DNA from: a virus
Taxonomy: Duplodnaviria; Caudoviricetes
IMG/VR virus record: IMGVR_UViG_3300032212_000685
Span: 1-36,760 of that record
Direction: 5' to 3' (one strand)
DNA length: 36,760 bases
Shown: one piece after another, positions 4,813 through 25,073 of the stretch
How positions within the stretch are numbered: the first letter of the stretch is position 1
Layout: each line of letters begins with the position of its first letter
Notes under the pieces: generated by a model
Databases searched by the model: none
Seen by the model: only the letters and a program-made list of their open reading frames with translations
Told to the model about the DNA's origin: nothing
Position numbers and translations under genes: made by a program

Positions 4813-5840
4813 AAGAAGCTGTCCTCATTCTTTTCTTCAGGTAAAGGAATCAAATCCAATGCTTCAGGGGGTAACAATTGCAACTCGGTACGCTCGCCAT
4901 CATCGTCCATTGTGAAAGTGACATGTACAATTAATAAATCGGTATCAAGTTCGTTATAAGCATCAACCACTCGCACTAACTTATTAGGCGACCATAAACC
5001 TGTGTCATGTCGCCAACCATTCACGGTGTAGGTCTTAGCCTGCGATTCTCCAAAACTAATATTTCGATTAAAGGTGGCAATGCGTTTTGCATCATTTAAG
5101 GTGAGGTCATCGGGGATAATATATGTAGAGCGAACTTTGCGTATATTGTCATCGATAACTTTTTCTTCAATGTGTGCTGCGGCTTTACCATTAAGAAAAT
5201 CATCACCGGCACCTTGACCAGATACAGTATAAGAATAAAACCGATCACGTTTACTGCGTGTCGCAGAACAACCGAGAATATTTTCACCGAGTATCAAAGC
5301 CGTGTTGATTTTTTCTTTACTGGCGCGGGTGATCACTAAGTCACCCCTAGCATTACTGGTTAAATGTACAGCGCGATAACTTGCAAGCTTAGATAAAAAC
5401 TCAAAATAAGTATCGCCACCATCACGGGACTGTAGTTTAAAATCTTCACCTACATCTGTTTCAACTACCACGTTAATACCAAAGGCGGCACATTCTTTTT
5501 TTGCAATCGCAGCCAAGTCTAAATTATTGTGAGGTGTTCTGTTGGTTGAGCAGTCCACCAAGTCGCCTAACTTAGAACGACCGTTAACCGATAGACTATG
5601 ACTTTTATCATCATAAGATGTATTTACATCATCAACATATCCCGTGATGACCGCTTCACCATCAATCTCAACGACACACGGGCTGTCTTCTTTCACCACG
5701 CGTTTTGTTTTTGAGTTGGCCCATTTATCCGTTAGCTCAAGTTCAAAGGTGTCTGCAAATTGGCGCATACCCCGTTGAATTTTAATTTTCTTCCAACCAC
5801 CATAAATTTGACCGTCAACCTTTAAAGCTAAATCAGACAT
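4809..5840 (-). CDS. baseplate hub, Mu gp44/gpP-like
   Basis: L.VDG..YGGW, VITGYVD, GRSK..DLVDCS, GENIL, W.PN..V motifs. Confidence 0.92.
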   Translation of the reverse strand: MSDLALKVDGQIYGGWKKIKIQRGMRQFADTFELELTDKWANSKTKRVVKEDSPCVVEIDGEAVITGYVDDVNTSYDDKSHSLSVNGRSKLGDLVDCSTNRTPHNNLDLAAIAKKECAAFGINVVVETDVGEDFKLQSRDGGDTYFEFLSKLASYRAVHLTSNARGDLVITRASKEKINTALILGENILGCSATRSKRDRFYSYTVSGQGAGDDFLNGKAAAHIEEKVIDDNIRKVRSTYIIPDDLTLNDAKRIATFNRNISFGESQAKTYTVNGWRHDTGLWSPNKLVRVVDAYNELDTDLLIVHVTFTMDDDGERTELQLLPPEALDLIPLPEEKNEDSFL

Positions 5841-6990
5841 CAGTTAAAACCTCCAGTGCGTGGCCACCCTGAACAAATCCAGCGTGCGGAACTTTGTTTC
5901 GTGTAACAAGCTCTGCTTCACGAGTCGCATCACCATAAACGTTGTGCGCAATAACCAAGGCAGGCAAGGTGGTCAAAGGTGTGTGTTGTTTAATCTTCGG
6001 CAGTTGTGCAGAACGGGTGCGCAAGTCACGAATAACAACAGCACGTAACTCGACCAGGCTAAAATACATCTCATCGGCAACCGGTGAACCATCAACAATG
6101 TTCTCTTGTTCAATTTGGTTTTCCAGCGCGGTAGCTAAATCTTGTTGCACACGCAACGCATCATTACTGGTTGCAAAATTTGTGGTGGTTGCTGTTTTTG
6201 CACTCTCACAAATAGCAACGCGTTTTGTCAGTGTCACTAAGGCTTGTTTTGAATTTGCTGCTTGTCGACCCTGCGGTGTGCGGGTTGATGGGTAAGTGGG
6301 CTCTGCTTTATCAAACACACCTTTGTACAAATTAAGTGCATTGCCTGGTTCACTGAGTAAAGATTGAACACGAGAAAAAGAACCGGCAATGGCAACCGCC
6401 ATATTAAATGGGGTACGAATTAAACTGGCGATAGGAACAGTCGCTGCACCCGTCACATTTTCAACAGCACCAAGAATATCGCCGAGCTCTTTGGTAATGT
6501 CATCCACATAACTTTGTGCCTGACCCAGCACATCAAAGACCGATGCAAAATCATTAATGCTATCGGCAATGGATTTGTCCGCTTGTTTATTAACACCCGA
6601 GGCAGTGTCATACGTTGAGTTGGGATATCGTGGCTTCGCTTCGGCTTCAACATAAGTCAATGTGAAGGTGGCTTTGCCATGAGAGCGTGACGACTCACTC
6701 ATCCGCGCATCAATAATTGAAACAACCATGCTGCCATATTTAGGGTGCAGCAATGTACCGTCCCCAGGTAACTCAATGGCATCCAGTAACTTATCACGCG
6801 CTTCTTGCCAGCGCGCACCCATTACGGAAACTTGAATATTATATTTTCGTGCCTTCTTGCCTAGGTCTTCAACATAAGGTTCATCGCGAGACGGATATTC
6901 ATGCACTACATTACGACGACCAAACTCCAGGTCTTCACTGGTTACTATAAATTTTGCATCACGAAACTGTCCGATCACATTATGACTCAT
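5833..6990 (-). CDS. DNA circularisation protein, Mu gp43/N-like
   Basis: FR...F, GRR.V.HEYP.RD.PYVEDLG, G.L.HP..G, PALV.A...YGDA.R..E. Confidence 0.93.
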   Translation of the reverse strand: MSHNVIGQFRDAKFIVTSEDLEFGRRNVVHEYPSRDEPYVEDLGKKARKYNIQVSVMGARWQEARDKLLDAIELPGDGTLLHPKYGSMVVSIIDARMSESSRSHGKATFTLTYVEAEAKPRYPNSTYDTASGVNKQADKSIADSINDFASVFDVLGQAQSYVDDITKELGDILGAVENVTGAATVPIASLIRTPFNMAVAIAGSFSRVQSLLSEPGNALNLYKGVFDKAEPTYPSTRTPQGRQAANSKQALVTLTKRVAICESAKTATTTNFATSNDALRVQQDLATALENQIEQENIVDGSPVADEMYFSLVELRAVVIRDLRTRSAQLPKIKQHTPLTTLPALVIAHNVYGDATREAELVTRNKVPHAGFVQGGHALEVLTDV

Positions 6991-7442
6991 GCGAAAATCC
7001 TCCCGTGTGCTACACTAAGGGCATCACGATAATTAAGGATAATGTTATGAAAAAACTGTTGTTGATTTTGTTTTTGCTGCCTAGCTTGACGATGGCTATC
7101 ACCCCGGCTCAGAATGTATTTAATTACGAGTGTGAGCTGCTTAATAAAAAAAATTTGGGTTTTAGCTGTAATGGTATAGAGGGGGACGTACAACGCCGTC
7201 TTAAGATGCATGTTGCAAACACAAACCCAACAAAGAAAAAATATGTCAGTTATGAATTTAATAGATTTTTGCTTCGCTACATTGATTTGGGTGGTAAGTA
7301 TATTGATATTACTTACAAGGGCTGGCCAAAGAATAAAGTGCGTATGTGTACAGCCACTAAAAATCGTAAAAACTTTAGATGCAACGACTGTATAGTTCCT
7401 AAAAAAGGGACTGGTACATGCAAGTAGATATGCCCACTTCAT
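6987..7442 (-). CDS. 151-codon bridge ORF antisense to 7047-7427, coupled to both flanking tail genes
   Basis: ATGA overlap with tape-measure stop (7439-7442) and with circularisation-gene start (6987-6990); no recognisable domain. Confidence 0.5.
   Translation of the reverse strand: MKWAYLLACTSPFFRNYTVVASKVFTIFSGCTHTHFILWPALVSNINILTTQINVAKQKSIKFITDIFFLCWVCVCNMHLKTALYVPLYTITAKTQIFFIKQLTLVIKYILSRGDSHRQARQQKQNQQQFFHNIILNYRDALSVAHGRIFA
7008..7016 (+). promoter_or_regulatory. extended -10 promoter for the antisense cargo gene
   Basis: TGC-TACACT (TGn + -10) about 30 nt upstream of ATG 7047. Confidence 0.5.
7047..7427 (+). CDS. secreted, basic, Cys-rich protein; antisense cargo (moron)
   Basis: AAGGA SD; MKKLLLILFLLPSLTMA signal peptide; 6 Cys in mature part. 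Confidence 0.75.
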   Translation: MKKLLLILFLLPSLTMAITPAQNVFNYECELLNKKNLGFSCNGIEGDVQRRLKMHVANTNPTKKKYVSYEFNRFLLRYIDLGGKYIDITYKGWPKNKVRMCTATKNRKNFRCNDCIVPKKGTGTCK

Positions 7443-9130
7443 AACGCCCCCCCAGCTAACAAACCATTATCAACATCAACACCCATACCCTCGGTCTTAA
7501 CCTCTTTGGTTTTGACCTTGGCGCCTTTGCTTTCAATTTCCAGTTTTACGGTGGCTTCATTCGGGTTGTCGTGCAATGCACGATAAACCGCCGCACCAAG
7601 TTTATTAGGAAGGTCGCCCAGTATCATAGACGTTAATTGATAGCTTGCTGCACCCACAGCAAGTGGCCCTGCATATTTTGCGAGAGACATTGCCTTACCG
7701 CCGAGTCGCTTAACCAATGATGCTTTACCTTTCCCCGCACCACCTTTGCCGCCAGCACCGCCACCCCATGAATCAGGGGTAAGACTTAAATGTTTATTCA
7801 CAACATAAACGGGTAATGGAATCGGGCCACCACCATTGCCACCTGAAGAACCTTTGCCACCTTGACCAGTCAATTTGTTTTTTGCCCATGACGCGGCTTT
7901 ATAGGTTTTACCTGCAACCAATGCACCGGCACCACCAACGACCAGGTACTTTAAAATTTTCCCCGTGTTTTCACTGCCTAACTGGTTTAATAAATCAGCC
8001 GCATCTTGAAGTGGGCCGGTTAATGATTCATCTGCAAATTTTTTCCAGGCAGTGGATAACATTTCAACACTACCTGCTGCATCTTTAGCAGCGCGAGCAG
8101 AATCTTTTAATGTGGTTTCACCATTCGCAGTGACGTTCATAAATTTATCTAAACTTGTTACAGCGCCAGTGCGTTGAAACTCTGAACTTGCTGCATTAAA
8201 GGCACGTATTGCTTCACCATCAAACACTTTGCTTAATACTGTTTTTTTACCGCCGGACATTTTAATAATATCAACTATCAACTCATTAATAGGGCGAAGT
8301 ACTTCTTTGCCTTTTTTAAGTTCTTTAGGATCGAAAACTTTAATGCCGCCTTTTTGCAACATGGCCACTTTTTTCTTATCACCTAAAGTTCTTAGCATTG
8401 CCTCAAATGCGGTTGCTGCCATTTCAGATGACCCCGTACCCATACGAATAACTTGTAAGGCTGCACCCATTTCTTTAATGGCACCAACACCACCACGCCC
8501 CATTGAGGTGTAAGCAGTAACAACACGTGGGCCAAGTGTCGCTAAGTTTTGTAGTGTGAATGCACCGGCTTTACCTTGCACGTTTAACAGGTCAATGGCT
8601 TTGAGTACTTGCTGTTCCTGGGTGATGCCCATCTTTTGAAATTCAGCCATGATGCCGCCAATGGAAACGCCTTGTGCACCCGTGGCTTGAATAGCTGCAC
8701 CAATGTTGCGAATGTTTTTACGGGCAAATTCTAAGTCGCCGGTTTTCTCAACGATCTCTTCAATGGCTGATGTAATTTGGTCTGGGTTAACACGAATGTC
8801 TGGTGCATTGGCTGCATCATAAATTTCTTTCTTCAGCAGATTCATATCATCAGCCGACTTGTTAGCCTGAATACCTAAACGAGTAAAGCGACGCTCAAGA
8901 CTAATCACCATTTTTCCAGCACCCACGCCAGCAGCACCAGTGAGTAAAGCAGTGTAACGATTGCCTGCTCGGTCAAGCATGCGACCAGTTGCACCCGCCG
9001 TTCTACCTAAACGCGATAAGTGACCACGACCTTTCTTTGAGAAGTTTCCCAAAGAGTCGGTGTACTTTTTTGCGTTGCGTGCAAGATTACCTGCGAGATC
9101 AACGACGATGCTTGTTTTTAATTCAGTCAC
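7439..9130 (-). CDS. tail tape measure protein
   Basis: 563 aa, Ala/Gly-rich helical; between chaperone and circularisation genes; PVYVVN motif. Confidence 0.88.
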   Translation of the reverse strand: MTELKTSIVVDLAGNLARNAKKYTDSLGNFSKKGRGHLSRLGRTAGATGRMLDRAGNRYTALLTGAAGVGAGKMVISLERRFTRLGIQANKSADDMNLLKKEIYDAANAPDIRVNPDQITSAIEEIVEKTGDLEFARKNIRNIGAAIQATGAQGVSIGGIMAEFQKMGITQEQQVLKAIDLLNVQGKAGAFTLQNLATLGPRVVTAYTSMGRGGVGAIKEMGAALQVIRMGTGSSEMAATAFEAMLRTLGDKKKVAMLQKGGIKVFDPKELKKGKEVLRPINELIVDIIKMSGGKKTVLSKVFDGEAIRAFNAASSEFQRTGAVTSLDKFMNVTANGETTLKDSARAAKDAAGSVEMLSTAWKKFADESLTGPLQDAADLLNQLGSENTGKILKYLVVGGAGALVAGKTYKAASWAKNKLTGQGGKGSSGGNGGGPIPLPVYVVNKHLSLTPDSWGGGAGGKGGAGKGKASLVKRLGGKAMSLAKYAGPLAVGAASYQLTSMILGDLPNKLGAAVYRALHDNPNEATVKLEIESKGAKVKTKEVKTEGMGVDVDNGLLAGGAL

Positions 9131-9264
9131 TCAAATTTCCTAAGTAAGTGATATAGCGCCGTAGCGTTAATTGATGAATTTCTTTTTCTGCCCAGCCTGT
9201 ACGAGATGCGATAACCAGCGTTAACTTATTAATCGCTTTCGCCAGACTGTTCAGACTCTCCCCG
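9123..9264 (-). other. -2 frameshift extension of tail assembly chaperone
   Basis: CGG GGA GAG site at 9256-9264; shifted frame reads ..SLNSLAKAINKLTLVIASRTGWAEKEIHQLTLRRYITYLGNLSD* and fills the gap to the tape measure. Confidence 0.65.
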
Positions 9265-9618
9265 TGATTCAAATTCCTCTACAACTTTCACCGCCGCGTT
9301 TTCAAGTTCGTTGGCTTTTTCTTGTAGCAAACTTAAATCTTCAGGGTGAAGTGATTTAATGTTATCGAGTGAAAGTGGGCCACTGCAATCATCAATGCTT
9401 TTAATTTGACGACGTAACACATGCACACCCACCATTGTTGGGCTGGGTATAAATTCATGTTGTGGTTTATTTTTTTCATCAAATGTTGTCACAAGCTTTT
9501 CTGATTCTTCTTGCGCTTCAATCACATCACCTGCAGTAGGTTCACGTAAAACGGCCTTTTTAAAGACCGCTTTACCTACCGTTAAACCATGTGTTAAGGG
9601 AACAGTAATTTCACTCAT
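9229..9618 (-). CDS. tail assembly chaperone, Mu gp41-like
   Basis: L.HGL, LRE.TAGD.I.A, L...DL..L motifs; follows tube. Confidence 0.85.
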   Translation of the reverse strand: MSEITVPLTHGLTVGKAVFKKAVLREPTAGDVIEAQEESEKLVTTFDEKNKPQHEFIPSPTMVGVHVLRRQIKSIDDCSGPLSLDNIKSLHPEDLSLLQEKANELENAAVKVVEEFESRGESEQSGESD

Positions 9619-13619: not shown

Positions 13620-14546
13620 TTACGCTACTGCGTTTTGAATGAAGTACGCCAGGTCATTCGCAGTAATGAGTTCTTTAACAGATTCACCAACACGTACACG
13701 TTGTCCACCACGCAAGCCGATATCCGAATCTTCTTTTGCGCCTGCAACACGATTTCCATGTTGTGCGGTTAAGGCAAACGTCATACCTGAACGGGTATCT
13801 GCCATCACGTCACGATATTGCAAACTAATGTGTTTACCCCATGCACGTTGTAAGGCAGCAGCTTGACCTTTTTTAGCAGTATTGATTCGTGCTTCACCAA
13901 CAAGGATGTCTTCGAGCTCAAATAACTCTTTAATTGCATCACGATGAGCAACACCTTTGTCACCACTATTACCATGCGCTGCTTTAACGATATCTGGATG
14001 ACGTGCTAATACTGAATATGCCTGGCGGCCAATGGTCATGATGTTGCCACGCATCACCATGCCATCGAGTGCATCCATTAATACACCGATAGGATCAGAG
14101 TTTGCAAAATCACTAAACTGATTCACACCCGCTAATGTTTGCTGGCTACCTGCTGCATAGTTCGCGGCATTGAAAACCATATTGGCTACACGCACTTCAC
14201 GACCTAGTTCAATCAGGTTTGAAGTTTGTTCTACCGACTTGCCCAGTGGATCATAATTTTCTGGTGCGTTGTCGATATCGGCTTGAGGGATTTTATCGTC
14301 AAGACCAAAGTCAACAGTCGATGCTGTTTCTTCAGTTGCAGAGAAACTCACTTCATTGGGTGCAGACTTTCGACCCACCTTTGTATCTGGAACAGTGAAG
14401 CCTTCAGCCATGTTGTGTTTAAGATATTTGAAATCTTCTTTGTTAACAGGAACACGCGGTGCAACTTCATCAGCAATCATGCGTGTGTTTTTATACGCAA
14501 TTGAAATGGCCGTTAAGTCTGGTTGAATAGGAAATGGTGCTGGCAT
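13620..14546 (-). CDS. major capsid protein (appears gpE-family rather than Mu gpT)
   Basis: 308 aa after protease and decoration gene; P.LT.I.IAY.N..IAD...P.VPV, E.RVA, SDP, ..LF....I.VG.A, WG motifs. Confidence 0.85.
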   Translation of the reverse strand: MPAPFPIQPDLTAISIAYKNTRMIADEVAPRVPVNKEDFKYLKHNMAEGFTVPDTKVGRKSAPNEVSFSATEETASTVDFGLDDKIPQADIDNAPENYDPLGKSVEQTSNLIELGREVRVANMVFNAANYAAGSQQTLAGVNQFSDFANSDPIGVLMDALDGMVMRGNIMTIGRQAYSVLARHPDIVKAAHGNSGDKGVAHRDAIKELFELEDILVGEARINTAKKGQAAALQRAWGKHISLQYRDVMADTRSGMTFALTAQHGNRVAGAKEDSDIGLRGGQRVRVGESVKELITANDLAYFIQNAVA

Positions 14547-14587
14547 AATGTGTTACTCCTAATTTAAATTTTTAATAAAGTGATTGA

Positions 14588-14959
14588 TTAACCTTGCATT
14601 ACGCCAGGTGCATAATCCATTGGGCCGATATCACCATCCGCAGCATCTACAGATGCGAAACCAATGATGCGTACATTTGCTCCTGCCGCTGGTGCAGCTT
14701 TAACCGCTTTACCATTTGCATCGGAAACTAATTCATCACCACGCGAGACGACACCACCGTATTCAACGTCGGGTTGGCCACCTTGATTAATATCAATACG
14801 CTCGCCTATATCAGCGCCAAGCTCACCGGCAATACCAAATACTTTGTCTGCTGCTGCTGCACCTTGAAGCACTTCATCATCTGAAGTACCGCGCTTAACA
14901 ATACGAAAAGCAGTAATGGCACCTTCAGCAACATAATTTTTTGTAAAAGTCGGGTTCAT
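14588..14959 (-). CDS. head decoration/cement protein (DUF2190-like)
   Basis: Small Gly/Ala-rich; VE.GG.V..GD.L.SDA.GKAV, G.A...AA.GD. Confidence 0.7.
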   Translation of the reverse strand: MNPTFTKNYVAEGAITAFRIVKRGTSDDEVLQGAAAADKVFGIAGELGADIGERIDINQGGQPDVEYGGVVSRGDELVSDANGKAVKAAPAAGANVRIIGFASVDAADGDIGPMDYAPGVMQG

Positions 14960-15000
14960 AATTTATTTCTCCTGTTAGCCTTATTTATAAATAAGCCTGA

Positions 15001-15519
15001 TTACGAGTTTTGTTTTTTAACGTGAGCAACCGCCTGGCTAACACTGACTGTGATGCCTTTATCCGATTGTTCTTTTTGATATTCCATTGCGGCATTAGCA
15101 ATGGCTTGTGCATCATCACCATCAACACCACCAGATTCACCAGCGCCACTTTCATTAAGGTCAATTTGCTTGCCGAGTGATTTAGTGAAATCGTTAAACC
15201 AATCGAGCGGTGATTTTTTAAATGTTTCTTCCTTGCCTTCTTCACCTGCAGAGAATTCAAAGTTAGCTTCATCGCTATCTGAAAGTTGCAACATGAATTC
15301 AGCCATGCCTTCAGCTTGAGCAGGTAGTAACTTTCCTTGATCTACAAGCTCAGCAATGTTTTTACTGAACTCAACACCTAAACGCTTATTACGCTCAGCT
15401 GTTAACTCTGTTTCATGTTCTTTTTGTTTGCTGGCAAACTCTGCTTCAACTTCTTCGCGCGCTTTTTTTGCAGCTTCTTCTTTTGCTGCATCAAGTTCAG
15501 CTTGTGAGAACTCAGACAT
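15001..15519 (-). CDS. nested in-frame scaffold protein (Mu Z-like internal start)
   Basis: AGGAG SD upstream of in-frame ATG 15519 (MSEFSQAELDAAK), after a Pro/Ser linker. Confidence 0.65.
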   Translation of the reverse strand: MSEFSQAELDAAKEEAAKKAREEVEAEFASKQKEHETELTAERNKRLGVEFSKNIAELVDQGKLLPAQAEGMAEFMLQLSDSDEANFEFSAGEEGKEETFKKSPLDWFNDFTKSLGKQIDLNESGAGESGGVDGDDAQAIANAAMEYQKEQSDKGITVSVSQAVAHVKKQNS

Positions 15520-16197
15520 GGGTTCATCTCCTGTTTTTTTAGGTTCGGGTTGTGAAAAGGATGTGGGGGTATCACTGTCTTCATCACGCAATCGATTTGC
15601 ATGCTCAGACATTGATTCGATTTCATAATCTGGAAGAACAGCATCGGCTTTTTCAACACCGAATTGCTCTATAAAGAAATCACGCATTCGGCGCATCATG
15701 CGACTTAATGTATTTGGCGTGTAGCTGTCAGATGAATAATCAAAGCATTCATCATCAGTCGATGCATTGTAGATAGAGTCCATGCCTTCAATGGCTGGAG
15801 GTACTGCACCTAAGAAGCCAATGTGTTTTAAATAAAAACCATCAGCACCCTTACCAATACGAATAGAACGGTTTGGCCATAAGCCATCTTCTACACCTTT
15901 GGCAAACTCATCATGAAGCTTGTCACCTTTAACAGATAGCACATTACCTTCACGCTTTAGGTCTTGAATCCAACCATAAGCTGGTGCATCTGTTTGAGGG
16001 TGACCAATCACCATTGGTGCACCACTGAAGATGTTCTTATCTATAAGCTTCTTGGTGTTGGTTACAATTTGGTCGAGTTCATCTTCAGTCCAAACTTTCT
16101 TTGTACCGTTAGAGTCAACTTGTTCACCACCAACAAAGGCAGGGAAAAAGTCGTCGAGACCTTTGAAGTCATGTGTTTTTGTTTTTGATTTGTCCAT
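15001..16197 (-). CDS. prohead protease/scaffold, Mu gpI-like (start revised to MDKSK)
   Basis: P.VIGHP..APAYGW, RS, HIGFLGA.PPA..G motifs; acidic coiled-coil C-terminus. Confidence 0.88.
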   Translation of the reverse strand: MDKSKTKTHDFKGLDDFFPAFVGGEQVDSNGTKKVWTEDELDQIVTNTKKLIDKNIFSGAPMVIGHPQTDAPAYGWIQDLKREGNVLSVKGDKLHDEFAKGVEDGLWPNRSIRIGKGADGFYLKHIGFLGAVPPAIEGMDSIYNASTDDECFDYSSDSYTPNTLSRMMRRMRDFFIEQFGVEKADAVLPDYEIESMSEHANRLRDEDSDTPTSFSQPEPKKTGDEPMSEFSQAELDAAKEEAAKKAREEVEAEFASKQKEHETELTAERNKRLGVEFSKNIAELVDQGKLLPAQAEGMAEFMLQLSDSDEANFEFSAGEEGKEETFKKSPLDWFNDFTKSLGKQIDLNESGAGESGGVDGDDAQAIANAAMEYQKEQSDKGITVSVSQAVAHVKKQNS

Positions 16198-16204
16198 GCC
16201 GTAA

Positions 16205-16254
16205 AGCATGAGGGAAAGGCGGGTTTTGAAATAGTCGTGAATTATTTCACTACT
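16205..16254 (-). promoter_or_regulatory. late promoter of head/tail operon (activator palindrome + CATGCT -10)
   Basis: agtagtgaaataattcacgact (16254-16233), 22 nt, CATGCT, 7 nt, ATG; 18/22 identical to box at 29341. Confidence 0.75.
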
Positions 16255-16343
16255 ACTTATTTGCGGTGCTTTTTATATGCTGCATGTACTTGAAGACAAA
16301 CGCAAGCGATAAATTTTAACTACAACAAAAGAGGAAAATAATT

Positions 16344-16757
16344 ATGCTTGGTTCTATTAATAAGAACAGCTATGTCATTTTGGCATTACTGATGAGTATG
16401 ACGATGATGATTGTAATGGCCGGACCAGCTACGGCTGCGGGTTGTTCTAACCCAGCTCATCAACACTTTATTTCTTTTAACTCAACAGAAACAATGCAGC
16501 CAGTAGCAGTAGCGGCCACTAAACGAATGTCTATCGGCCCTGGTAGCGGTGATGTTTTAGTTGCAGATAAAGTAGCTGATAATATTAGTTCATATAATAA
16601 GAGTGCCACCCATCATACAATTGCAGATAGTGGCTCCGTCTATTTATATAAACAAAGTCAATCGGTATCGACACATCATAGTAATCGACATGCTTTGACT
16701 GTGGCCTTTAAACATCGATCACCACCTGATGGTTGGCATGATGTGAAGCGACAATAA
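16344..16757 (+). CDS. hypothetical exported protein, His/Ser-rich
   Basis: GAGG SD; hydrophobic N-terminus ending ATA-A; ends before bidirectional terminator. Confidence 0.65.
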   Translation: MLGSINKNSYVILALLMSMTMMIVMAGPATAAGCSNPAHQHFISFNSTETMQPVAVAATKRMSIGPGSGDVLVADKVADNISSYNKSATHHTIADSGSVYLYKQSQSVSTHHSNRHALTVAFKHRSPPDGWHDVKRQ

Positions 16758-16779
16758 AGTAGTAACAAAATATAGATAT

Positions 16780-16808
16780 AAAAAAGGCCGCTTGAAGCGG
16801 CCTTTTTT
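16780..16808. terminator. bidirectional intrinsic terminator
   Basis: aaaaaa-ggccgc-ttgaa-gcggcc-tttttt between convergent genes. Confidence 0.9.
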
Positions 16809-16810
16809 TA

Positions 16811-17353
16811 TTATGATTTTTCTTTTAGAGGAACAATAGCATGCTCTCTAATATCAATTATTTGTGAAAACCATCGCTGATACCATGTGATTTTGACGGC
16901 TGGTGAATAGTTCATATCATACCCCATAGAACGCAGTAATTCATTATAGCAAATCGAATCTAGAACTCTTAAAGGTGGTGGCTCATCTGCTTCGATGTCC
17001 AAACGCTCAGCATAGAATACATTGTATTTTTCATCAGCTACGTCATTGTCCAGAAGAAGAGCCTTTTCCAGACTGGTAAACCTTCTGGATAAATCTGAGT
17101 GCAATCTTGCCTTTGATGATGTGCCCACTATTAAGTCTATAATAGAAAAAGCAGTTACTATCGCAGCCAGAATCACAGCAACCATCTTATGCTCCTTTAA
17201 AACAGCATAGATTGATGATGAACCAAATATTAATGATACAGCAGATGTGGTTTTGCTGAATCGTTCATAAAAAGCTACTCGCCGATTGTGATAGCGCACT
17301 GAACGCTGGATATCAAACAGCAGCTGCTCTTTTTTGCTAGAGTCGTCAGTCAT
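16811..17353 (-). CDS. two-TM SLATT-like protein
   Basis: RS.RYH..R..FY, two hydrophobic segments, KA.LH..L..RF..L pattern. Confidence 0.6.
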   Translation of the reverse strand: MTDDSSKKEQLLFDIQRSVRYHNRRVAFYERFSKTTSAVSLIFGSSSIYAVLKEHKMVAVILAAIVTAFSIIDLIVGTSSKARLHSDLSRRFTSLEKALLLDNDVADEKYNVFYAERLDIEADEPPPLRVLDSICYNELLRSMGYDMNYSPAVKITWYQRWFSQIIDIREHAIVPLKEKS

Positions 17354-17355
17354 GG

Positions 17356-17529
17356 TTATTTTTTGCCTTGTTTACCACCTGAGCTTGGCTTTGTTGTAGG
17401 GGCAGGATGCGTGTTTGATATTTGACTATCAGTTATACCTTTGATGTTATTGATTGACTCTGATATATCACTGGGTTGTCTGTTTCCAGTCTTATTTCTG
17501 GTGTTGTTTTGGTTTTTCTTTGTCATCAT
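17356..17529 (-). CDS. small hydrophilic protein upstream of SLATT-like gene
   Basis: AGGAG SD before MMTKK; Pro/Lys-rich tail; abuts next start. Confidence 0.55.
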   Translation of the reverse strand: MMTKKNQNNTRNKTGNRQPSDISESINNIKGITDSQISNTHPAPTTKPSSGGKQGKK

Positions 17530-17542
17530 TTTCTCCTGTTTT

Positions 17543-17920
17543 TTATAATTCAATTTTTAATTCTTTTCTTGCCACATCCCAAAAATCTTTTACCACGGCT
17601 TTAAAGTGTTCCAATTTTTGATCTGGGTCACCCGTATTATCTGTGCTATTCAACACTGCCACTATCGCATCAATTTTTGATGTTGTTTGCTTAGTAGATA
17701 TGAGCCGCATCTTTTGTAAAGCTCTATACACATCACCCAGACAATCAGATGCTTCGTTCTTCCTGTTTTCACTTAAAAGAACAAACGCTGAATTTGCGCT
17801 TGTAATAAAATCTAAGTACGTCTCCATTCTCTGTTCTTGAAAGCGACTTTCATCAGCATGCTTTAGTTGCCTGTCCTGAATTTTCCAGGTAACAAAGCCA
17901 CCCACTGCAACACCACCCAA
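17543..17920 (-). CDS. membrane-anchored hypothetical protein (start uncertain)
   Basis: Frame open upstream through a TM-like FDWNLLITALTGLGGVAVGGFVTW; helical C-terminus. Confidence 0.6.
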   Translation of the reverse strand: MGGVAVGGFVTWKIQDRQLKHADESRFQEQRMETYLDFITSANSAFVLLSENRKNEASDCLGDVYRALQKMRLISTKQTTSKIDAIVAVLNSTDNTGDPDQKLEHFKAVVKDFWDVARKELKIEL

Positions 17921-17982
17921 ACCAGTGAGCGCAGTTATTAATAAATTCCAATCAAACGTTGCGACTTCTTCAAGTCGCCATA

Positions 17983-18441
17983 TTAAGTTTTACTCGGTAT
18001 TACATGACAAGATAATTCAGCTACACCACCAACCTCGGTGGTACTCGCTTTAAAAATCACGCCATTAATTTTTACTTGCTTGCTTATACCATCTGCCGCA
18101 GAGTTTATTACATCTGCAATCTGAAATTTTTGCTTGTCTGTTCTTGTCTCTGTGCCAATATGTCCAAATGCCATGCAACGCGTAACCGCATTCGTAGCGC
18201 CAACGGATGTTGGTAAGTAAGAATAAATACTCGATTGATTTCTACTAATGGATATAACAACGTTTTCTAAATTAGTGATAGCGACTAATGCGCTACCATT
18301 TTTAGCATGCTTCCAACCAGTGACTTGAAAGATTCCTTTCGCACCCGATACAAAAGATTTTATTCTGTCTGCATCATAAGCAGCAGACGCGATCATTGGC
18401 AGCGATATTGCCAAAATGCACCCGATTATTCTTATTTTCAT
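17983..18441 (-). CDS. secreted hypothetical protein
   Basis: GGGAG SD before MKIRIIGCILAISLPMIASA signal peptide. Confidence 0.7.
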   Translation of the reverse strand: MKIRIIGCILAISLPMIASAAYDADRIKSFVSGAKGIFQVTGWKHAKNGSALVAITNLENVVISISRNQSSIYSYLPTSVGATNAVTRCMAFGHIGTETRTDKQKFQIADVINSAADGISKQVKINGVIFKASTTEVGGVAELSCHVIPSKT

Positions 18442-18459
18442 GAATCTCCCCATTTCTTA

Positions 18460-18588
18460 TTGTTTAAACATCTTCAAAACCCCTTCAAAAACGGCACAGC
18501 GCCGATTTCACATCGGGGGTGATAACATCATGGCGGTATGGGGGTGATACCGGCCTTAAAACGGCTCTCAGGGCGAAAGCCAAATTTA
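18460..18588. other. candidate strong gyrase site-like central element
   Basis: GC-richer intergenic island near window midpoint (18380); cttcaaaa repeated at 11-bp spacing; GGGGGTGATA x2. Confidence 0.5.
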
Positions 18589-18984
18589 TTAAATTTCTAT
18601 TGTTTCATAATCTAAATTTGGCAAATCAACTTGTTCATTATCAAAGCTTTCAAATGGAGGGGGGAGCTCCATTATCCTCTGCATATCTTCAACTTGTTTT
18701 TTTAAGCTGACTGTATGATTGTCTTTGGTGGTGAATTTAGCTTCGACAAAGGGTTGATTGATTACTAATAGACCTGCCCTTAGTTCACGGTTTTCTTTTA
18801 GAGTATTAAAATAAGACGTTAGAAATAAAGTAATGGCAATACCTAAGCTCATCCACATAATAATATGCCAATAATATGGAACACCTTTTTTCTCAAGTTC
18901 TTCTAACGCTGTGGTTGATGTTATTTTTCTTGTTGTTGCGTTACTTTTTATTTCACTTAACCACTTTTTCCTTTTGTTGCTCAT
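18589..18984 (-). CDS. single-TM hypothetical protein co-oriented with repressor
   Basis: AAGGAG SD before MSNKRKK; TM WHIIMWMSLGIAITLFLTSYF. Confidence 0.65.
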   Translation of the reverse strand: MSNKRKKWLSEIKSNATTRKITSTTALEELEKKGVPYYWHIIMWMSLGIAITLFLTSYFNTLKENRELRAGLLVINQPFVEAKFTTKDNHTVSLKKQVEDMQRIMELPPPFESFDNEQVDLPNLDYETIEI

Positions 18985-19573
18985 CGAGTTCTCCTTGTTC
19001 TTGTACTTCTTCTTCAGCAAGTTGAAGTAAGTCGATTACGTTATCGGGGATATCACTATCATCATCATCTCGAATTAGGGGATATAACATTCGAATGACC
19101 TTGGCTTTTTTGGCGAGGGTTACCTTTAGGCCCAGCTCCTCAATATATACGTCTACGCATTCTATAGCAATTTCTAGGGCTTCTTGATCGAAGGGTTTTG
19201 AGTCGTTTTTTGTGCTCAGTACCACCTGATATAAGTCACGAGCCCACCCATCTATTCTTTCTACCCATTCACGCTTAATTTCGGGCTCTAACAGGATCTG
19301 TTTTAAGCCCTTAACTATATTAGTAACATAACTTTTTGCTTCGGAGACTTGATCGTCAAATGGTAATTGCTCTGACTTTTTACCAGTTACTATATATATG
19401 ATGTTCGCTCCAGCATTTGCAATACCTGCAAGGTAGTCAGCATCAGGCCTCCTGTCATCAGACTCATAATTACCTTGTGCTTGTCTTTTAACGCCACCTA
19501 GCTCACCAAAATCAGATTGGCTATATCCCAATCTTTTTCTCTCTTCTATTAATCTGCTTCCGATTGACGACAT
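18953..19573 (-). CDS. immunity repressor, XRE-family HTH
   Basis: IG.RL.EERKRLG.SQ.DF....GV....Q..YE...R.PDA.YL; divergent from ner. Confidence 0.9.
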   Translation of the reverse strand: MSSIGSRLIEERKRLGYSQSDFGELGGVKRQAQGNYESDDRRPDADYLAGIANAGANIIYIVTGKKSEQLPFDDQVSEAKSYVTNIVKGLKQILLEPEIKREWVERIDGWARDLYQVVLSTKNDSKPFDQEALEIAIECVDVYIEELGLKVTLAKKAKVIRMLYPLIRDDDDSDIPDNVIDLLQLAEEEVQEQGELDEQQKEKVVK

Positions 19574-19645
19574 TATTTACAATACACTCTTGACATTGTT
19601 TGCTTATGAGTACATATTGCGTTTCAAGGTTCAAATATGTACTTA
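19574..19645. promoter_or_regulatory. lysis/lysogeny switch: early promoter and operator
   Basis: TTGACA 19590-19595, 17 bp, CATATT 19613-19618; inverted repeat agtacatatt (19609-19618)/aatatgtact (19634-19643). Confidence 0.65.
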
Positions 19646-19721
19646 AATGAATACAAATAAAGGCGAGACTCTAATCTCACCAAAGTTGCTAACTAACTAT
19701 TTAAAAACGGTTGATTTGATT

Positions 19722-19964
19722 ATGCACCACGCAGATATTTTTTGCTTATTAATGAAGAAAAATGTGACGCTTTCTTCAGTTGCTAGTGAAGAGCAAGTGA
19801 CCCCCAGTTTTGTCAGCCAAGTCATACGCGGCAAAAAAATCAGCTTTTCAGTTGCTACTGCCATTGCTGCGAAAGTAGACAAAAGCCTCAACACACTTTG
19901 GCCAGGTAAATATGACCATACTCCGCGTCCATTACGTCGTGCATCTTCACGGGTGGCTGCATGA
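19722..19964 (+). CDS. ner: Ner-like HTH regulator (start revised to MHHADI)
   Basis: H.ADI...L...T, VS.VI.G, IA......LWP..Y; first early gene. Confidence 0.8.
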   Translation: MHHADIFCLLMKKNVTLSSVASEEQVTPSFVSQVIRGKKISFSVATAIAAKVDKSLNTLWPGKYDHTPRPLRRASSRVAA

Positions 19965-20443
19965 TTAATCATCCTTTAGAAAAGGGTTTGGTAAAACAAA
20001 CGGCCAAACCTCAATGGAACAGGTTCGTAAACTTCGATGAATCTGGTATGCATCTGCAGCCATTTGACGATAACTTCCCCCTGGTTTCAGATCTGGATCA
20101 TCCAGCGCAGTCAAAAACTTGGCTGCAAGTTGAAAGTTCCAATAAGCCGCAAATGCCAATTTGGTTTGATTGTCTTTCCAGCGCTTTTTGCTTTTGCGCT
20201 GTGAAGGTGTTGCAGCCATGTATTCATTTATATCTTGGTTATTCTCTTCCCGCCATTCGCGAAACGCCGAAAGACCCAGCTTCTTTAATTCGCTTTGCAA
20301 TGACACTGCCTGCTCATCCGTTAAGTCGCCGACAACTTCTTTTGCCAGTTCTCTTGCGTTGGCGGCGTATTTATAAACGTGTTGCATTGTGGGTCTCCTT
20401 GTCGTTTCGATTGAAAAATACTACCCCTAAAAAGGAAAAATAA
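19961..20443 (+). CDS. 160-codon bridge ORF antisense to 19965-20387
   Basis: ATGA overlap with ner stop; TAA 2 nt before next GTG; no recognisable domain. Confidence 0.4.
   Translation: MINHPLEKGLVKQTAKPQWNRFVNFDESGMHLQPFDDNFPLVSDLDHPAQSKTWLQVESSNKPQMPIWFDCLSSAFCFCAVKVLQPCIHLYLGYSLPAIRETPKDPASLIRFAMTLPAHPLSRRQLLLPVLLRWRRIYKRVALWVSLSFRLKNTTPKKEK
19965..20387 (-). CDS. hypothetical protein, antisense within early operon
   Basis: AAGGAG SD 7 nt before ATG; protein-like helical composition; TAGTAT upstream. Confidence 0.7.
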   Translation of the reverse strand: MQHVYKYAANARELAKEVVGDLTDEQAVSLQSELKKLGLSAFREWREENNQDINEYMAATPSQRKSKKRWKDNQTKLAFAAYWNFQLAAKFLTALDDPDLKPGGSYRQMAADAYQIHRSLRTCSIEVWPFVLPNPFLKDD

Positions 20444-20445
20444 CA

Positions 20446-20919
20446 GTGGAAAATAACGATAAAAAAATTACCAGCAATCAGGGAGATTTGTTCCAGCAAC
20501 TTGCTGAACACGAGCCGGACTACTTGTCTGATAACGCGCCTGAGTTAGATATCGAACAAGAATTCATGGGGCAGATTAAATATGCCTTACGTCAATCTAA
20601 AAAACGTGGGCTTAGTCGAGAGCGCATTATTGAGCGTATGAACTTGTGCTTGCCAGAAGAGCTTCACATCACAAAGCGTCAACTTGATGCCTGGTGTGCG
20701 GAGTCAAAAGAATACCACCACTTCCCAGCTATTTATTTACCTGCATTTATTTGGGCGGTGAGAGGTGTGCTTAGACCACTTGAAGTTTTAACGGGTGCAT
20801 TAGATTTAGTTGTTCTTGATGAGCATGAGCAAGAAATTGTTGAACTAGGTCGAGCGCATTTAACACAAGTGCAAGCAAGTAAAACAGCTCGCTTAATTAA
20901 AAAGAAATTCAATATTTAA
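20446..20919 (+). CDS. phage regulatory protein (CII-like)
   Basis: SR..I..RM, LDAW.AESK..H.FP..YLPAF pattern of early Mu-like genes. Confidence 0.6.
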   Translation: MENNDKKITSNQGDLFQQLAEHEPDYLSDNAPELDIEQEFMGQIKYALRQSKKRGLSRERIIERMNLCLPEELHITKRQLDAWCAESKEYHHFPAIYLPAFIWAVRGVLRPLEVLTGALDLVVLDEHEQEIVELGRAHLTQVQASKTARLIKKKFNI

Positions 20920-20937
20920 GATAAGGAGAAATGATAA

Positions 20938-21327
20938 GTGAACCTCACACTTGAAGATTTACAAAAGGCTGCGACACAAGCAGCAGAAGAGGCAAAAGGC
21001 CAAACTTCTGATGAACTACTTGAGAAAGTAGCCAGCCATCATCGAGAAAATATTCAGAGAGCTATTCAACAAGGATATGCATTTAAATCTGTGTTGCTTA
21101 AGGAAGGCAGTGAAGTGCTGACTGACTTATCTGCAGAACACGGCATGTCAATTATGTATGTCCATGCGGCTATCAAAGTTTTTGACATTGCAATCACTCT
21201 AGCAGAAACGATTGAAGATAATAATGAACTACTCAAACAGGTTGGTCTGTCTCCTGAGTTTGAACATTATGACGCCCTTTCTCATCAAGAAATTTTAACT
21301 TCTATAAGAGGATTAATTAATGAGTAA
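20938..21327 (+). CDS. hypothetical protein
   Basis: AAGGAG upstream; overlaps next gene. Confidence 0.65.
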   Translation: MNLTLEDLQKAATQAAEEAKGQTSDELLEKVASHHRENIQRAIQQGYAFKSVLLKEGSEVLTDLSAEHGMSIMYVHAAIKVFDIAITLAETIEDNNELLKQVGLSPEFEHYDALSHQEILTSIRGLINE

Positions 21328-22309
21328 AGATATAGCAAATATTCCAACACATATAGCCAACTTCATTAGTGGTTTAAAACTTAAGCCGATTTCTGACGTT
21401 ATGGCATCAGCACCTAAAGAAAGATTTAAGCATGCGGCAATTGGTGACCAGCTTGAATTAGCAGGTGTTTTATATAAAGGGTTCTCCTTGTTGGATTTGA
21501 AAGATGGACTTGGGCATGGGAAATATATGTCGGGTTTGGTTAGCAATAATATTGAGCCTACCGGTGCATGGAGAGCACAAAGTTTAGCCAAATTAAGCTT
21601 ACGTACACATTCTTCAAATTTTGCAGCGCTGCAAAATTTGCCCCCTACAAAACTAGCCATGATGGTGAAGTGGGATGATAAAGAATTAAATGAATTTTTC
21701 TCAGGCAAAGAAGTTAGGGGTATTACCTATGATGATGCTGTAGTTATTCCAACGCGAGAAATGGAACAGCGATTAAAACAAGCACAACGCAGCAACAATG
21801 AACTGGAACAAGAGCTGGATAAAGTAAACCAAGAAAACTCTAAACTACATGAACAAATAAAACTCAGCCGTAAGAAGCAAAATAGTTTAGAAGGTTTTAA
21901 TTATCCGCTTTCTGTTGAGCGGGTGCGCATTGAGTCTTCTGTTTTATCTGCACAGGCTGTTCAGTTTATTGACGACATGGAACAGCTTGCTGTTGAACTT
22001 ACCCAAGCTTCTGACCTTAGTAAAGATAAAAAGAAACAAGAGGCTGAATTCTCAGCAGGTGCATCATCTTTATATTTAAACCTTAAAGCTATTCAGTCTA
22101 AGTCAGCCTATTTAATGAAGTGGTTTGCTGAAACCATCGGTGAAGATTATTTGCCTGACAATCCAGAAGATGTGCCATCGATGACATTGGAAGAAGCAGA
22201 AAAAGTTCATTCATTACATAAATTATTGTTGGCTGAAGCACGACTTGAATCTAAGTCACGTGATAGCCAAAGAAAAACAAAACGCAAAAATAAAAAGGCT
22301 ATGAAATGA
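21320..22309 (+). CDS. DUF3102-like coiled-coil protein preceding transposase
   Basis: G..LL.LK....HG.. motif; coiled coil; ATGA-coupled to transposase. Confidence 0.6.
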   Translation: MSKDIANIPTHIANFISGLKLKPISDVMASAPKERFKHAAIGDQLELAGVLYKGFSLLDLKDGLGHGKYMSGLVSNNIEPTGAWRAQSLAKLSLRTHSSNFAALQNLPPTKLAMMVKWDDKELNEFFSGKEVRGITYDDAVVIPTREMEQRLKQAQRSNNELEQELDKVNQENSKLHEQIKLSRKKQNSLEGFNYPLSVERVRIESSVLSAQAVQFIDDMEQLAVELTQASDLSKDKKKQEAEFSAGASSLYLNLKAIQSKSAYLMKWFAETIGEDYLPDNPEDVPSMTLEEAEKVHSLHKLLLAEARLESKSRDSQRKTKRKNKKAMK

Positions 22310-23982
22310 AATCTTCGCCCAGCCTTAAAATAGTGAGTGATAGCACCGAACTTGTGACTGCAGATGATGCATGGCAGCGCATCCCAGAAAGCAAGCAATT
22401 GATCGCAAATGACCGAGGCTTAATTGTAAAAGAAGCAAAGCGTATTGCTGATTCTGAAGGTCGAGCGTTGCGTGATGCAATTGAGATCATGCTACTACGT
22501 ATGGAGGTTGAGGAAGATGTTGATACTAACCTTATTAAAATTGCTAAAACATTAGGTAAAAAAGGAAAGATACCCAGCTATTCAACCATCAACCGTTGGG
22601 TTAAAGATTTTAATAAGCTTGGCATCATTGGCTTAGCACCCAGACATAAAGGCAGCGAGCAAAAAGTGTATGGCTGGGAAGCTCGAGCCATGTGCCTTTA
22701 TAACAAACCTAGCAAGCCTGATATTAATGCCGTAGCACGTAAGTTGATGTCTGAAGGATTCAAAAACGTAACTTATGATCGAGTATACCGTTTCATCACT
22801 TCATTACCTGCACAAAAAGGTGAGATGAGTCGTGGTCGACTTGGGCCACGTTTATATGAGAACACCCAAAAAACATTTAAGCGACGCAGCACTGAACACT
22901 TGCCTGTTGGTTCATGCTTTCAGGGTGATGGACATACTCTTGATATTTATATGCAACACCCTACGGGTAAAAAACCGTGGCGTGCTGAACTGACTTTATG
23001 GATTGATGTGACGAGCCGTTATGTTGTGGGCTGGTATTTGTCTGAAGCGGAAAGTGCACACTCTACTTTATTTGCTTTAAGTTATTCCATTCTCAAACAT
23101 GACCATGTGCCAGCCATTTTACATATTGATAATGGCTCGGGTTATAAAAACAAAATGATGGGTGATGACTCAACAGGTTTTTATGCAAGGCTTGGCATAG
23201 ATGTAATGCATTCACGACCTTACAACGCAAAAGCAAAAGGTCAAGTTGAACGTTTCTTTGGCACGATGGAGCGTGACTTTAATAAGTGGTTTGATTCTTA
23301 TTGCGGTGCAGATATGGCCGATGAAGCGATTCAACTTTTATTAAAGAAATATAAAAAAGGTGAGGCAACATTACCTACACGTGAGCAATGGATGGCCGCA
23401 TTCACTGATTGGCTAGAGCAATATCATAACAAGCCACATGGTGGTCTTGATGGAAGAACACCGGCTGAGCTTTGGGCAACGCTTGAACGCCACCCTGTTG
23501 AAATGAAAAGCACAGCTATCTTCTGGCCTCGTGTCACACGTACTGTTAAGCGCCAAGCTATTACTTTAGATAAACGTGAATACATGGCTCCTGATCTTAT
23601 TCAATACAACAACAAGAAACTCACTGTTGAATATAACCTTCATGATGACAGCATGGTTCGCATACTTGATGACAAAGGTCGTTGGTTGTGTGATGCCACG
23701 TTAGTCACCAAACAAGACTATCTTCCTGCTTCTCGCCTTGAAGAAGCAAAACAAAAACGCCTGGCTTCATCCATTAAACGATTGGAAGTGCATGCTCAAG
23801 AAAAAAGAGATCGTGCTGGATTATCAATTACGCACGATCAAATTATTGATGATGTTGAAATGCTTGAGAATCAATGTGATTCAACATTGTTAGAAAAGAC
23901 AACGGGAACCGAAGTTCCCGTTGATATCAACATCGGTGTACAGACCGAAGATGATATTGATTTTAACGATATCGATTATTAA
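22306..23982 (+). CDS. DDE transposase, MuA-like
   Basis: QGDGHT, HIDNGSGY, KGQVERFF catalytic triad; PS..TI.RW HTH; YHNKPH..L...TP. Confidence 0.95.
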   Translation: MKSSPSLKIVSDSTELVTADDAWQRIPESKQLIANDRGLIVKEAKRIADSEGRALRDAIEIMLLRMEVEEDVDTNLIKIAKTLGKKGKIPSYSTINRWVKDFNKLGIIGLAPRHKGSEQKVYGWEARAMCLYNKPSKPDINAVARKLMSEGFKNVTYDRVYRFITSLPAQKGEMSRGRLGPRLYENTQKTFKRRSTEHLPVGSCFQGDGHTLDIYMQHPTGKKPWRAELTLWIDVTSRYVVGWYLSEAESAHSTLFALSYSILKHDHVPAILHIDNGSGYKNKMMGDDSTGFYARLGIDVMHSRPYNAKAKGQVERFFGTMERDFNKWFDSYCGADMADEAIQLLLKKYKKGEATLPTREQWMAAFTDWLEQYHNKPHGGLDGRTPAELWATLERHPVEMKSTAIFWPRVTRTVKRQAITLDKREYMAPDLIQYNNKKLTVEYNLHDDSMVRILDDKGRWLCDATLVTKQDYLPASRLEEAKQKRLASSIKRLEVHAQEKRDRAGLSITHDQIIDDVEMLENQCDSTLLEKTTGTEVPVDINIGVQTEDDIDFNDIDY

Positions 23983-24014
23983 CGAACTTAAAACCAACAA
24001 GAGGATTATATCAG

Positions 24015-25073
24015 ATGGGTCAAGCAACAGCTATACCGCACCAACAAAGCACGCAGGAATATCCTGAAACATGCCATGCCATTTACACAGAGAACGACAT
24101 CAAAGATGTATATAGCATTGTCGACTGGATTAATGATGGCCAACATCATGAGCCTGGCTATAAAAACCAACGCTCACAAACCAAACTAAGCAAGGCATCA
24201 AAAGTTAATGATTCCACATTGAACACCATTCTTCGTGGTAAGTATGTGAGCTCGCCAACCAAGTTTATTAAAAAAATGTTGGATGCCATTCGTCGTTGGG
24301 ATATGCGTGAAGAAGAAGGTGTGCATGACTGTGCCTTTGTTGAAACGTCTGTTTACCGAACAGGCATTGCAGCCTGTAAGCGTGCTCACCTATATCGTAA
24401 CTTTGCTGTATTGAGCGCCTTCGTTGGTACCGGCAAAACGCGCACCTTAAAACATTATGCAGCCAATAATTCAAATGTCGTTTTAATTGAAGCAACACCT
24501 GATATGAATGCCTCTGTATTGGTATCAGAGTTAGTTCACCAGACAGGTGCGGTGGTTCATAAAACAAATAAATATTCTGCAGGTACCAAAGCTGAAAAAA
24601 CAGCAGCGATTATTAATGCCTTAAAAGGTTCAGACAGTTTATTGATATTGGACGAAGCCGAAACGGTGAGTACAGCCACTCTGGAATACGTTCGACGCAT
24701 AAGTGATAAAGCAAACATCGGTGTTGTTTTATCTGGCACAGAAAAACTTCAACCTCTTATTAAAGATCCACAAGGTCGCTTTGGACAGATTAGTTCACGA
24801 GTTGGTTTCTGGCCACCGGTTATTAAAGGGATCACGCAAGATGATTCTGATGCGTTAGCAATGGCTGCTTTAAGTGATTTCGATATAGAGCTTACTGAAG
24901 AAATATTGGATGCCTTTTGGCAGATGTGTGATGGCTCTGCACGTGTACTTGTCTCAGCACTTATTCCTGGCATTAAAGATTATGGATTGAAAAAGAAAAA
25001 AGAGCTCACGCCAGAACTTATTTTTAAAGTTGGCCAGACGTTACTTGGCTTCAAAAAAGCACGGAGGGTTTAA
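24015..25073 (+). CDS. transposition AAA+ ATPase, MuB-like
   Basis: N-terminal HTH (SQ..L.......STL..IL.GKY), VGTGKT Walker A, LLILDEAE Walker B, Q..SRVG. Confidence 0.93.
   Translation: MGQATAIPHQQSTQEYPETCHAIYTENDIKDVYSIVDWINDGQHHEPGYKNQRSQTKLSKASKVNDSTLNTILRGKYVSSPTKFIKKMLDAIRRWDMREEEGVHDCAFVETSVYRTGIAACKRAHLYRNFAVLSAFVGTGKTRTLKHYAANNSNVVLIEATPDMNASVLVSELVHQTGAVVHKTNKYSAGTKAEKTAAIINALKGSDSLLILDEAETVSTATLEYVRRISDKANIGVVLSGTEKLQPLIKDPQGRFGQISSRVGFWPPVIKGITQDDSDALAMAALSDFDIELTEEILDAFWQMCDGSARVLVSALIPGIKDYGLKKKKELTPELIFKVGQTLLGFKKARRV

Follow-up and report, generated by a model that had tools for sequence, protein, structure and literature searches.

A Mu-like transposable phage carries, between its tape-measure gene and the first of its baseplate genes, an antisense gene over which the tail-operon strand stays free of stop codons for 151 codons, in a frame that starts on the stop of the tape-measure gene and ends on the start of the next one. 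On the evidence of codon usage and of related phages, this feature is real and selected. We consider it probable that the stop-free frame serves ribosomes on the late tail mRNA as a bridge across the insert, its peptide being a by-product. An earlier note on this DNA had read the codon choice of the antisense gene as kept for ribosome passage, and this reading is supported by our sequence tests, which cover codon use, a survey of related phages and the non-conserved peptide.

The DNA analyzed, hereafter the window, is a stretch of 36,760 nucleotides (36.8 kb). Family searches assign it to a Mu-like transposable double-stranded DNA phage, and the Mu-type families matched in Pfam include the transposase, ATPase, Mu portal, gpF, gp36, gp37, gp41 and gp43 to gp48, as well as a Mor-family activator. 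The minus strand carries the tail operon, which begins at about 16.2 kb and continues as far as the left end of the window. The insert lies between the gene for the tape-measure protein (TMP, Mu gp42-like; 7439..9130, minus strand; PHROG 973, E 1.8e-76) and a Mu gp43-like “DNA circularisation” gene (gp43; 5833..6990, minus strand; PF07157, E 2e-27), the first among the downstream baseplate genes, and thus upstream of all of them. The gp43 gene has a strong Shine-Dalgarno (SD) sequence (6999..7004, minus strand; -10.0 kcal/mol), located within the last codons of the bridge. The remaining gaps in the tail operon of the window measure 41-98 nt.

The antisense gene, which we call the cargo, is present where the earlier note had placed it, between the TMP and gp43 genes (7047..7427, plus strand), and encodes 126 amino acids. 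It has relatives in sister phages (71%, 64% and 36% identity), and its family profile gave 81 matches among representatives at 50% identity, two of which are sister alleles and at least one, of 4774 aa, spurious. An alignment of 56 family members retains four Cys residues and an R-x-x-x-L-G-G block, and the structure model is confident (pLDDT 87.6). Judging from its relatives, profile and model, the cargo is a real accessory gene and the plus strand is the protein-coding one. Its GC content is 0.37 and its GC3 0.41. The N-terminus is hydrophobic, and of the 6 Cys residues 4 are conserved in the family. The term “secreted” used for this gene is inferred from the hydrophobic N-terminus, and the product is likely an envelope protein. 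The family is without a name: the cargo matched nothing in Pfam or PHROG, Foldseek returned no match to its fold at E <= 0.001, and comparison with the ESM Atlas gave scores of at most 0.76 and no clear fold. The best VIA-align match (Z 7.4) was a small designed protein and was rejected as within background. Outside the slot, relatives of the cargo were found in 0 of 401 class-level genomes and not in the phage collection; L001 was dropped as a relative, its similarity being confined to the signal peptide.

The cargo was also said to have its own extended -10 promoter and SD sequence. Both are visible, as a predicted extended -10 element of the form TGnTAnnnT (here TG-C-TACACT; 7008..7016, plus strand) and a weak SD sequence 7 nt before the ATG (7035..7039, plus strand; -3.8 kcal/mol), but the promoter was not listed by a consensus scan, which requires a -35 element. 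The predicted -10 element adjoins or overlaps the gp43 ribosome-binding site of the opposite strand. At the other end, only 11 nt separate the cargo stop from the TMP stop. A search for intrinsic terminators gave no match in window positions 6800-7800, and the cargo may be Rho-terminated. As an accessory gene, the cargo resembles phage morons, or lysogenic-conversion genes, in its lower GC content, predicted promoter, variable tail-gene slot and hydrophobic N-terminus, but differs in that no terminator was found and in that its sequence is constrained by the opposite strand.

On the minus strand, the bridge ORF (6987..7442) runs stop-free through the whole insert for 151 codons in the same codon phase as the cargo, as the earlier note had claimed. 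The coupling that it described was seen as well, with ATGA on the minus strand at 7442-7439, where the bridge start overlaps the TMP stop, and at 6990-6987, where the bridge stop overlaps the gp43 ATG. A G-run (G7) in the 3′ end of the TMP gene forms an SD-like site 4 nt before the bridge ATG (7447..7453, minus strand; anti-SD duplex -9.5 kcal/mol). In translational coupling, ATGA or TGATG stop/start overlaps are accompanied by an SD sequence inside the upstream gene. That is the layout found here, with an overlapping stop and start at both ends and an SD sequence in the upstream ORF (-9.5 and -10.0 kcal/mol), although in contrast to ordinary coupling the relay is an ORF of 50-220 codons with a neutral product, lying on the back of another gene. 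The bridge peptide matched nothing in Pfam or PHROG. The three close alleles, with cargo identities of 71%, 64% and 36%, all keep the bridge, and the identity of their bridge peptides (52, 49 and 32%) is below that of the cargo over the same DNA.

In this register, TTA, CTA and TCA codons of the cargo would read as stops on the operon strand. The cargo has 14 Leu codons (TTG 8, CTT 3, CTG 3) and 3 Ser codons (AGT 1, AGC 2), none of them TTA, CTA or TCA, and the last 7 codons of the TMP gene hold two TTA; these counts agree with those of the earlier note. In 45 other ORFs of the window, TTA and CTA account for 46% of Leu codons and TCA for 27% of Ser codons. From window codon usage the probability that all three are missing, a check which the note had proposed, is 6.6e-5. 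As a control, we examined 4815 overlapping windows of 126 codons from 25 other genes, and none was free of TTA, CTA and TCA. For a plus-strand gene that the window carries outside the operon (16344-16757), the opposite strand contains 6, 7 and 11 stops in the three frames.

We surveyed TMP-gp43 junctions using gp43 relatives drawn from five annotated phages and from collections of viruses, metagenomes and genomes. Two of the searches contributed the best 80 of 214 and the best 80 of 587 gp43 matches. The TMP gene was placed by homology, and 15 loci without a placeable TMP and 5 without a usable gp43 match were left out. A locus identical to the window (L012) represents it in the survey, and three cargos below the strict SD filter (L105, L112 and L180) were included by hand. 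This yielded at least 142 distinct junctions, 98 insert-free and 44 with an insert of at least 100 nt. In 55 of the 98 insert-free junctions the two genes overlap at -4 or -1. The 44 inserts comprise 42 antisense cargos, a single sense gene (L076) and an insert of 145 nt (L046). The cargos encode 55-201 aa and fall into at least 11 blastp groups. A hydrophobic N-terminal stretch is present in 42/42, compared with 3/44 genes of the window. Pfam searches over 40 surveyed cargos gave two sub-threshold membrane matches, and PHROG searches over 11 other cargos a single match, for L050.

An in-register coupled bridge was found in 38 of the 42 cargo loci, a doubly coupled ORF in another register in two (L050 and L180), and none in two (L056 and L171). 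The earlier note had expected related phages with different inserts to keep this frame open and coupled, and would have been contradicted by frequent stops in it. A continuous bridge is absent in only 2 of 42 loci. L056 has 4 stops in register. The L171 cargo (L171:2585-2971) is a member of the window's cargo family and extends 18 nt into the TMP end; a single stop interrupts its in-register frame and is followed by a second ORF ending just before gp43, so that the bridge is either broken or two-step. The 38 bridges measure 50-220 aa and form 20 blastp groups. Relative to the TMP stop they start at -4 (30 loci), at -1 (4) or at 0 to +3 (4), and relative to the gp43 start they end at +1 (19 loci), at +11 (17), or at -2 and -6 (one each). 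The register relative to TMP is common to 36 of the 42 cargos. Among the bridged loci are two cultured phages with unrelated cargos, B23 (KY939598) and YPCBV-1 (OP380511). YPCBV-1 grows on Chromohalobacter, and its cargo is ORF44, of which the accessible text of the YPCBV-1 paper notes only the negative-strand position (PMC9769972).

Codon avoidance extends to the whole set. Over all 42 cargos, not conditioned on having a bridge, TTA, CTA and TCA occur 6 times, against 119.7 expected from the cargos' own rate of A-ending codons in other codon boxes (TTA, 1 of 102 TTR codons; CTA, 3 of 303 CTN; TCA, 2 of 134 TCN), and all six occurrences sit in L050, L056 and L171. In the 38 bridged cargos, A-ending codons make up 11-25% of other fourfold boxes and 36-54% of twofold boxes, whereas TCA, CTA and TTA are at 0. 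Thirty-nine cargos are devoid of the three codons, and in 38 of them a start lies at the TMP stop and the linker is open as well. The codon loss is specific to TTA, CTA and TCA, beyond GC bias. The power of the survey is uneven, as most loci are GC-rich and codon use like that of the flanks would leave about 15.5 of the 38 frames open by chance. In 15 of the 42 loci at least 3 of these codons are expected; 14 of them have none and L050 has one. Off-register frames are open in only 3 of 84 cases, two of which are the bridges of L050 and L180. Codon bias cannot explain the shared register, nor open off-register frames that belong to these two loci.

The occupants of the slot change frequently. 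On a FastTree phylogeny of 141 gp43 proteins, in which many nodes are weak, the presence of an insert changes 15 times and the cargo group 28 times. Three cargo groups alternate inside one well-supported gp43 clade, and groups swap among close gp43 relatives. In 30 of 42 cargo loci, compared with 1 of 98 insert-free loci, an antisense extended -10 element lies no more than 30 nt from the gp43 ATG, a pattern suggestive of a constant cassette whose cargo changes. Five loci with closely related gp43 (L031, L032, L033, L034 and L122, four from Vreelandella genomes and one a viral contig) hold three cargo groups. As their promoter and linker DNA is near-identical despite the change of cargo, the boundary of the swap could be mapped. 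Being related to one another and ranked by similarity to a query set that included bridged phages, the loci do not represent 42 independent events. Relatedness cuts the number of independent events; yet the cargo swaps recurred, and every one of them had to satisfy the constraint. A second set comprised 98 loci, of which 80 were obtained with two Shewanella/Vibrio phage gp43 queries, and provided 70 new junctions and 2 inserts. Both inserts are bridged, but they add little because they are GC-rich and of a family already seen.

To compare selection on the two strands, we used 8 disjoint pairs (895 codons) and uncorrected distances. In the cargo, protein-altering changes are purged (pNN/pSN 0.35), whereas the bridge frame is near neutral (pNN/pNS 0.92; pSN/pSS 0.88, the latter on 35 sites only). 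Together with the identity of the bridge peptides, lower than that of the cargo, this bears out the predicted lack of conservation of the bridge peptide. A conserved block at the C-terminus of the bridge overlies the promoter and SD sequence, and the changes in it are mostly non-synonymous. In statistical terms, what selection acts on is the absence of stops and not the peptide. The SD sequences at the bridge starts are strong, with a median of -8.85 kcal/mol over the 38 bridges compared with -3.0 for random ATG/GTG codons in TMP (p 1e-14) and -5.9 for the SD of gp43 in insert-free phages. Such strength is expected if the bridge start is used. The C/G ratio of the operon strand is 1.17 over the inserts versus 0.87 in the flanks, with C exceeding G in 32/38, and in the window it reaches 1.46 over the insert versus 0.80 in the flanks.

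A ribosome bridge might operate as follows. The TMP and gp43 genes are normally butted together, and ribosomes leaving TMP would meet an SD sequence and an overlapping start. After insertion, this old TMP-gp43 coupling start is where the bridge begins, as the sequence shows. Ribosomes would re-initiate at the TMP stop and go on translating to the far end of the insert, and by analogy with polarity in E. coli, about 450 nt of C-rich RNA would thus be covered, failing which Rho would terminate transcription before the baseplate genes. The ribosomes would then stop on the gp43 start and re-initiate there, restoring the ancestral coupling. To our knowledge, Mu late transcription proceeds without antitermination, and the Pfam search found no antiterminator in the window. 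The C-rich insert, the essential baseplate genes downstream and the lack of an antiterminator match together lead us to infer that ribosomes cross to gp43. Rho of E. coli is described as recognizing C-rich untranslated RNA, with premature stops leading to polarity (PMC13323073, accessible text). Selection acts on the absence of stops, and inserts that landed in codon register are likely the ones that persisted, since only in that register can single synonymous changes always clear the frame, a property of this one phase pointed out for narnaviruses (PMC6884476, accessible text). Expression of the cargo itself is predicted for the lysogen, driven by the predicted promoter embedded at the gp43 ribosome-binding site.

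We rate the avoidance of polarity as the main benefit, although sequence alone cannot part it from coupling. Coupling has some separate support in the rarity of bridges in the gp43 frame, which is used by 1 of 38 bridges while a stop is offered there in 19 loci. Nevertheless, in 35 of 38 loci stops in two or three frames come with the gp43 start sequence, which makes coupling at the 3′ end partly incidental, and the strong SD sequence of gp43 and the operon gaps of 41-98 nt suggest that strict coupling may be unnecessary. In a broader form, for which we see slightly better than even chances, Mu-like phages have an exchangeable antisense slot in which any envelope gene is expressed from a promoter hidden in the ribosome-binding site of gp43, provided that the operon strand stays translatable in codon register, and a translated bridge devoid of protein function would be the general way for noncontiguous operons to survive Rho under coupled transcription and translation.

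Four other explanations were weighed. The bridge may protect RNA, the ribosomes blocking pairing of the late mRNA with the cargo mRNA and cutting by RNase III or RNase E, or helping a late override that silences the cargo. Over its whole length the cargo transcript is complementary to the late mRNA, with no terminator match and 11 nt to the TMP stop; ribosome shielding has been proposed for narnavirus reverse ORFs (PMC8316113, accessible text), and antisense switching occurs in phage 80alpha (PMC11087260, accessible text). RNA protection alone, however, leaves unexplained both the single gp43-frame bridge among 38, with a stop on offer in 19 loci, and the lack of bridges over the antisense genes of 80alpha, and we regard it as unlikely. 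A second functional protein made from the operon strand, such as an inhibitor of the cargo in the lysis phase or a tail factor, had been raised as the alternative in the earlier note. It would account for the strong SD sequence and coupled start, and in the transposable phage Fc02 antisense overlapping genes are known to be functional (PMC9936078, accessible text). Against this, the bridge frame has no sign of purifying selection (0.92, and 0.88 on only 35 SS sites) compared with 0.35 in the cargo, bridges of 50-220 aa fall into 20 blastp groups with a Pfam match in 0 of 39 scanned, and the one conserved block overlies the promoter and SD sequence, with mostly non-synonymous changes. A second protein is thus quite improbable.

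It is less probable still that frameshifting or slippage at the TMP stop extends the C-terminus of TMP into the bridge, which would be kept open for this fusion. The G7 run stands directly before the TMP stop in the window, and the 30 of 38 bridges that start at -4 lie one frame from TMP. Yet extensions of unrelated sequence and length across loci would alter tail length, bridges starting at 0 and +3 are in frame with TMP but past its stop, and the G-run occupies the position expected of an SD sequence and is absent in L006. A shadow ORF, left open by chance and cargo codon bias in the absence of selection, has by our estimate the slightest chance of all and is largely refuted. Many survey loci are GC-rich, and such frames are often open in them; “pseudoambigrammatic” ORFs driven by GC3 have been described (PMC13262655, accessible text). 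However, the window cargo has a GC3 of only 0.41 and uses other A-ending codons freely, the 38 bridged cargos avoid TCA, CTA and TTA altogether while using A-ending codons in other boxes, and bias can neither fix the register nor put an SD sequence and a start at the TMP stop.

We found no description of a coupled stop-free bridge across antisense phage genes in a literature search of main texts that included few subscription journals. The layout is known from noncontiguous operons and the coding trick from narnaviruses. Noncontiguous operons, described in S. aureus and its phage 80alpha (PMC11034616, PMC11087260; accessible text), share with the present locus the temperate phage and an antisense gene nested between same-strand genes of an operon. 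An own promoter of the antisense gene is known there, according to the same accessible text, whereas here it is a predicted extended -10 element only. Transcription must persist over the untranslated region in such operons, which the accessible text explains by runaway transcription in Gram-positive bacteria (PMC11034616). The phages surveyed here have mostly proteobacterial hosts and, unlike the operons covered by that text, a coupled stop-free frame over the insert. In 80alpha, the one phage analyzed in this respect, antisense orf2, 11, 19 and 72 have stops in all three opposite frames and many TTA, CTA and TCA codons; the accessible part of the 80alpha paper names orf11, orf17/19 and orf72 in a legend (PMC11087260). 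That these genes of a single phage are without a bridge is in line with Gram-positive runaway transcription.

The reverse ORFs of ambigrammatic narnaviruses are likewise codon-aligned with the opposite ORF by avoidance of UUA, CUA and UCA, and the act of translating them has been proposed to outweigh the product (PMC6884476, PMC8316113; accessible text). As described there, narnaviruses differ in being eukaryotic RNA viruses with a genome-long ORF and with no operon, coupling to neighbors or Rho, and translation of their reverse frame and its requirement have been shown, whereas the phage bridge is known from its sequence. The olg1 and olg2 genes opposite gene 10 of Pseudomonas phage Fc02 share the opposite-strand overlap, the transposable phage and exclusion-type accessory genes (PMC9936078, accessible text). 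They lie in the immunity region, however, with proteins of both strands reported active, and that text describes no bridge role.

The 2024 paper on noncontiguous operons poses the puzzle of how transcription crosses an untranslated antisense stretch (PMC11034616, accessible text), and the present locus offers an answer for hosts with Rho polarity. Codon choice in the cargo would be shaped by translation of the opposite strand and not by the gene's own needs. This predicts a class of ORFs that are translated yet free of protein function and that gene callers drop or misname, and it suggests a rule for designing antisense cargo that can sit inside operons without causing polarity. The cultured phages B23 and YPCBV-1 are open to a direct test by one synonymous base change.

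Several further observations concern the slot and the window. The 145-nt insert of L046 (L046:2819-2971) has no clear cargo and holds a 50-codon ORF with ATGA coupling at either end; it may be what is left after a cargo was lost. The only sense-strand insert at the slot, in L076, has a terminator-like hairpin (upstream of position 1553) before gp43, which is a different solution at the same slot. In L064, L102 and L135, gp43 homologues are not preceded by a tape-measure gene, and in L102 and L135 small regulator-like genes and an intergenic hairpin lie upstream of gp43. The plus-strand gene at 16344-16757, outside the tail operon, encodes a second product whose N-terminus is hydrophobic (137 aa; without a match in Pfam or PHROG) and ends, within the region 16344-16808, at a hairpin flanked by A- and T-runs that by eye resembles a bidirectional terminator. 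The gene layout of the window is odd for a Mu-like phage, with protease, capsid-region and tail genes running leftward from about 16.2 kb, early, lysis, DUF1804, portal and gpF genes rightward from about 20 kb, and the repressor mid-window. Since a relative (G001) is collinear over window positions 14000-33999, an assembly error is unlikely to be the source of this layout. Finally, a 49-codon ORF (9123-9272, minus strand) between the tail chaperone gene and TMP overlaps both, and resembles the second part of a frameshifted tail-assembly chaperone.
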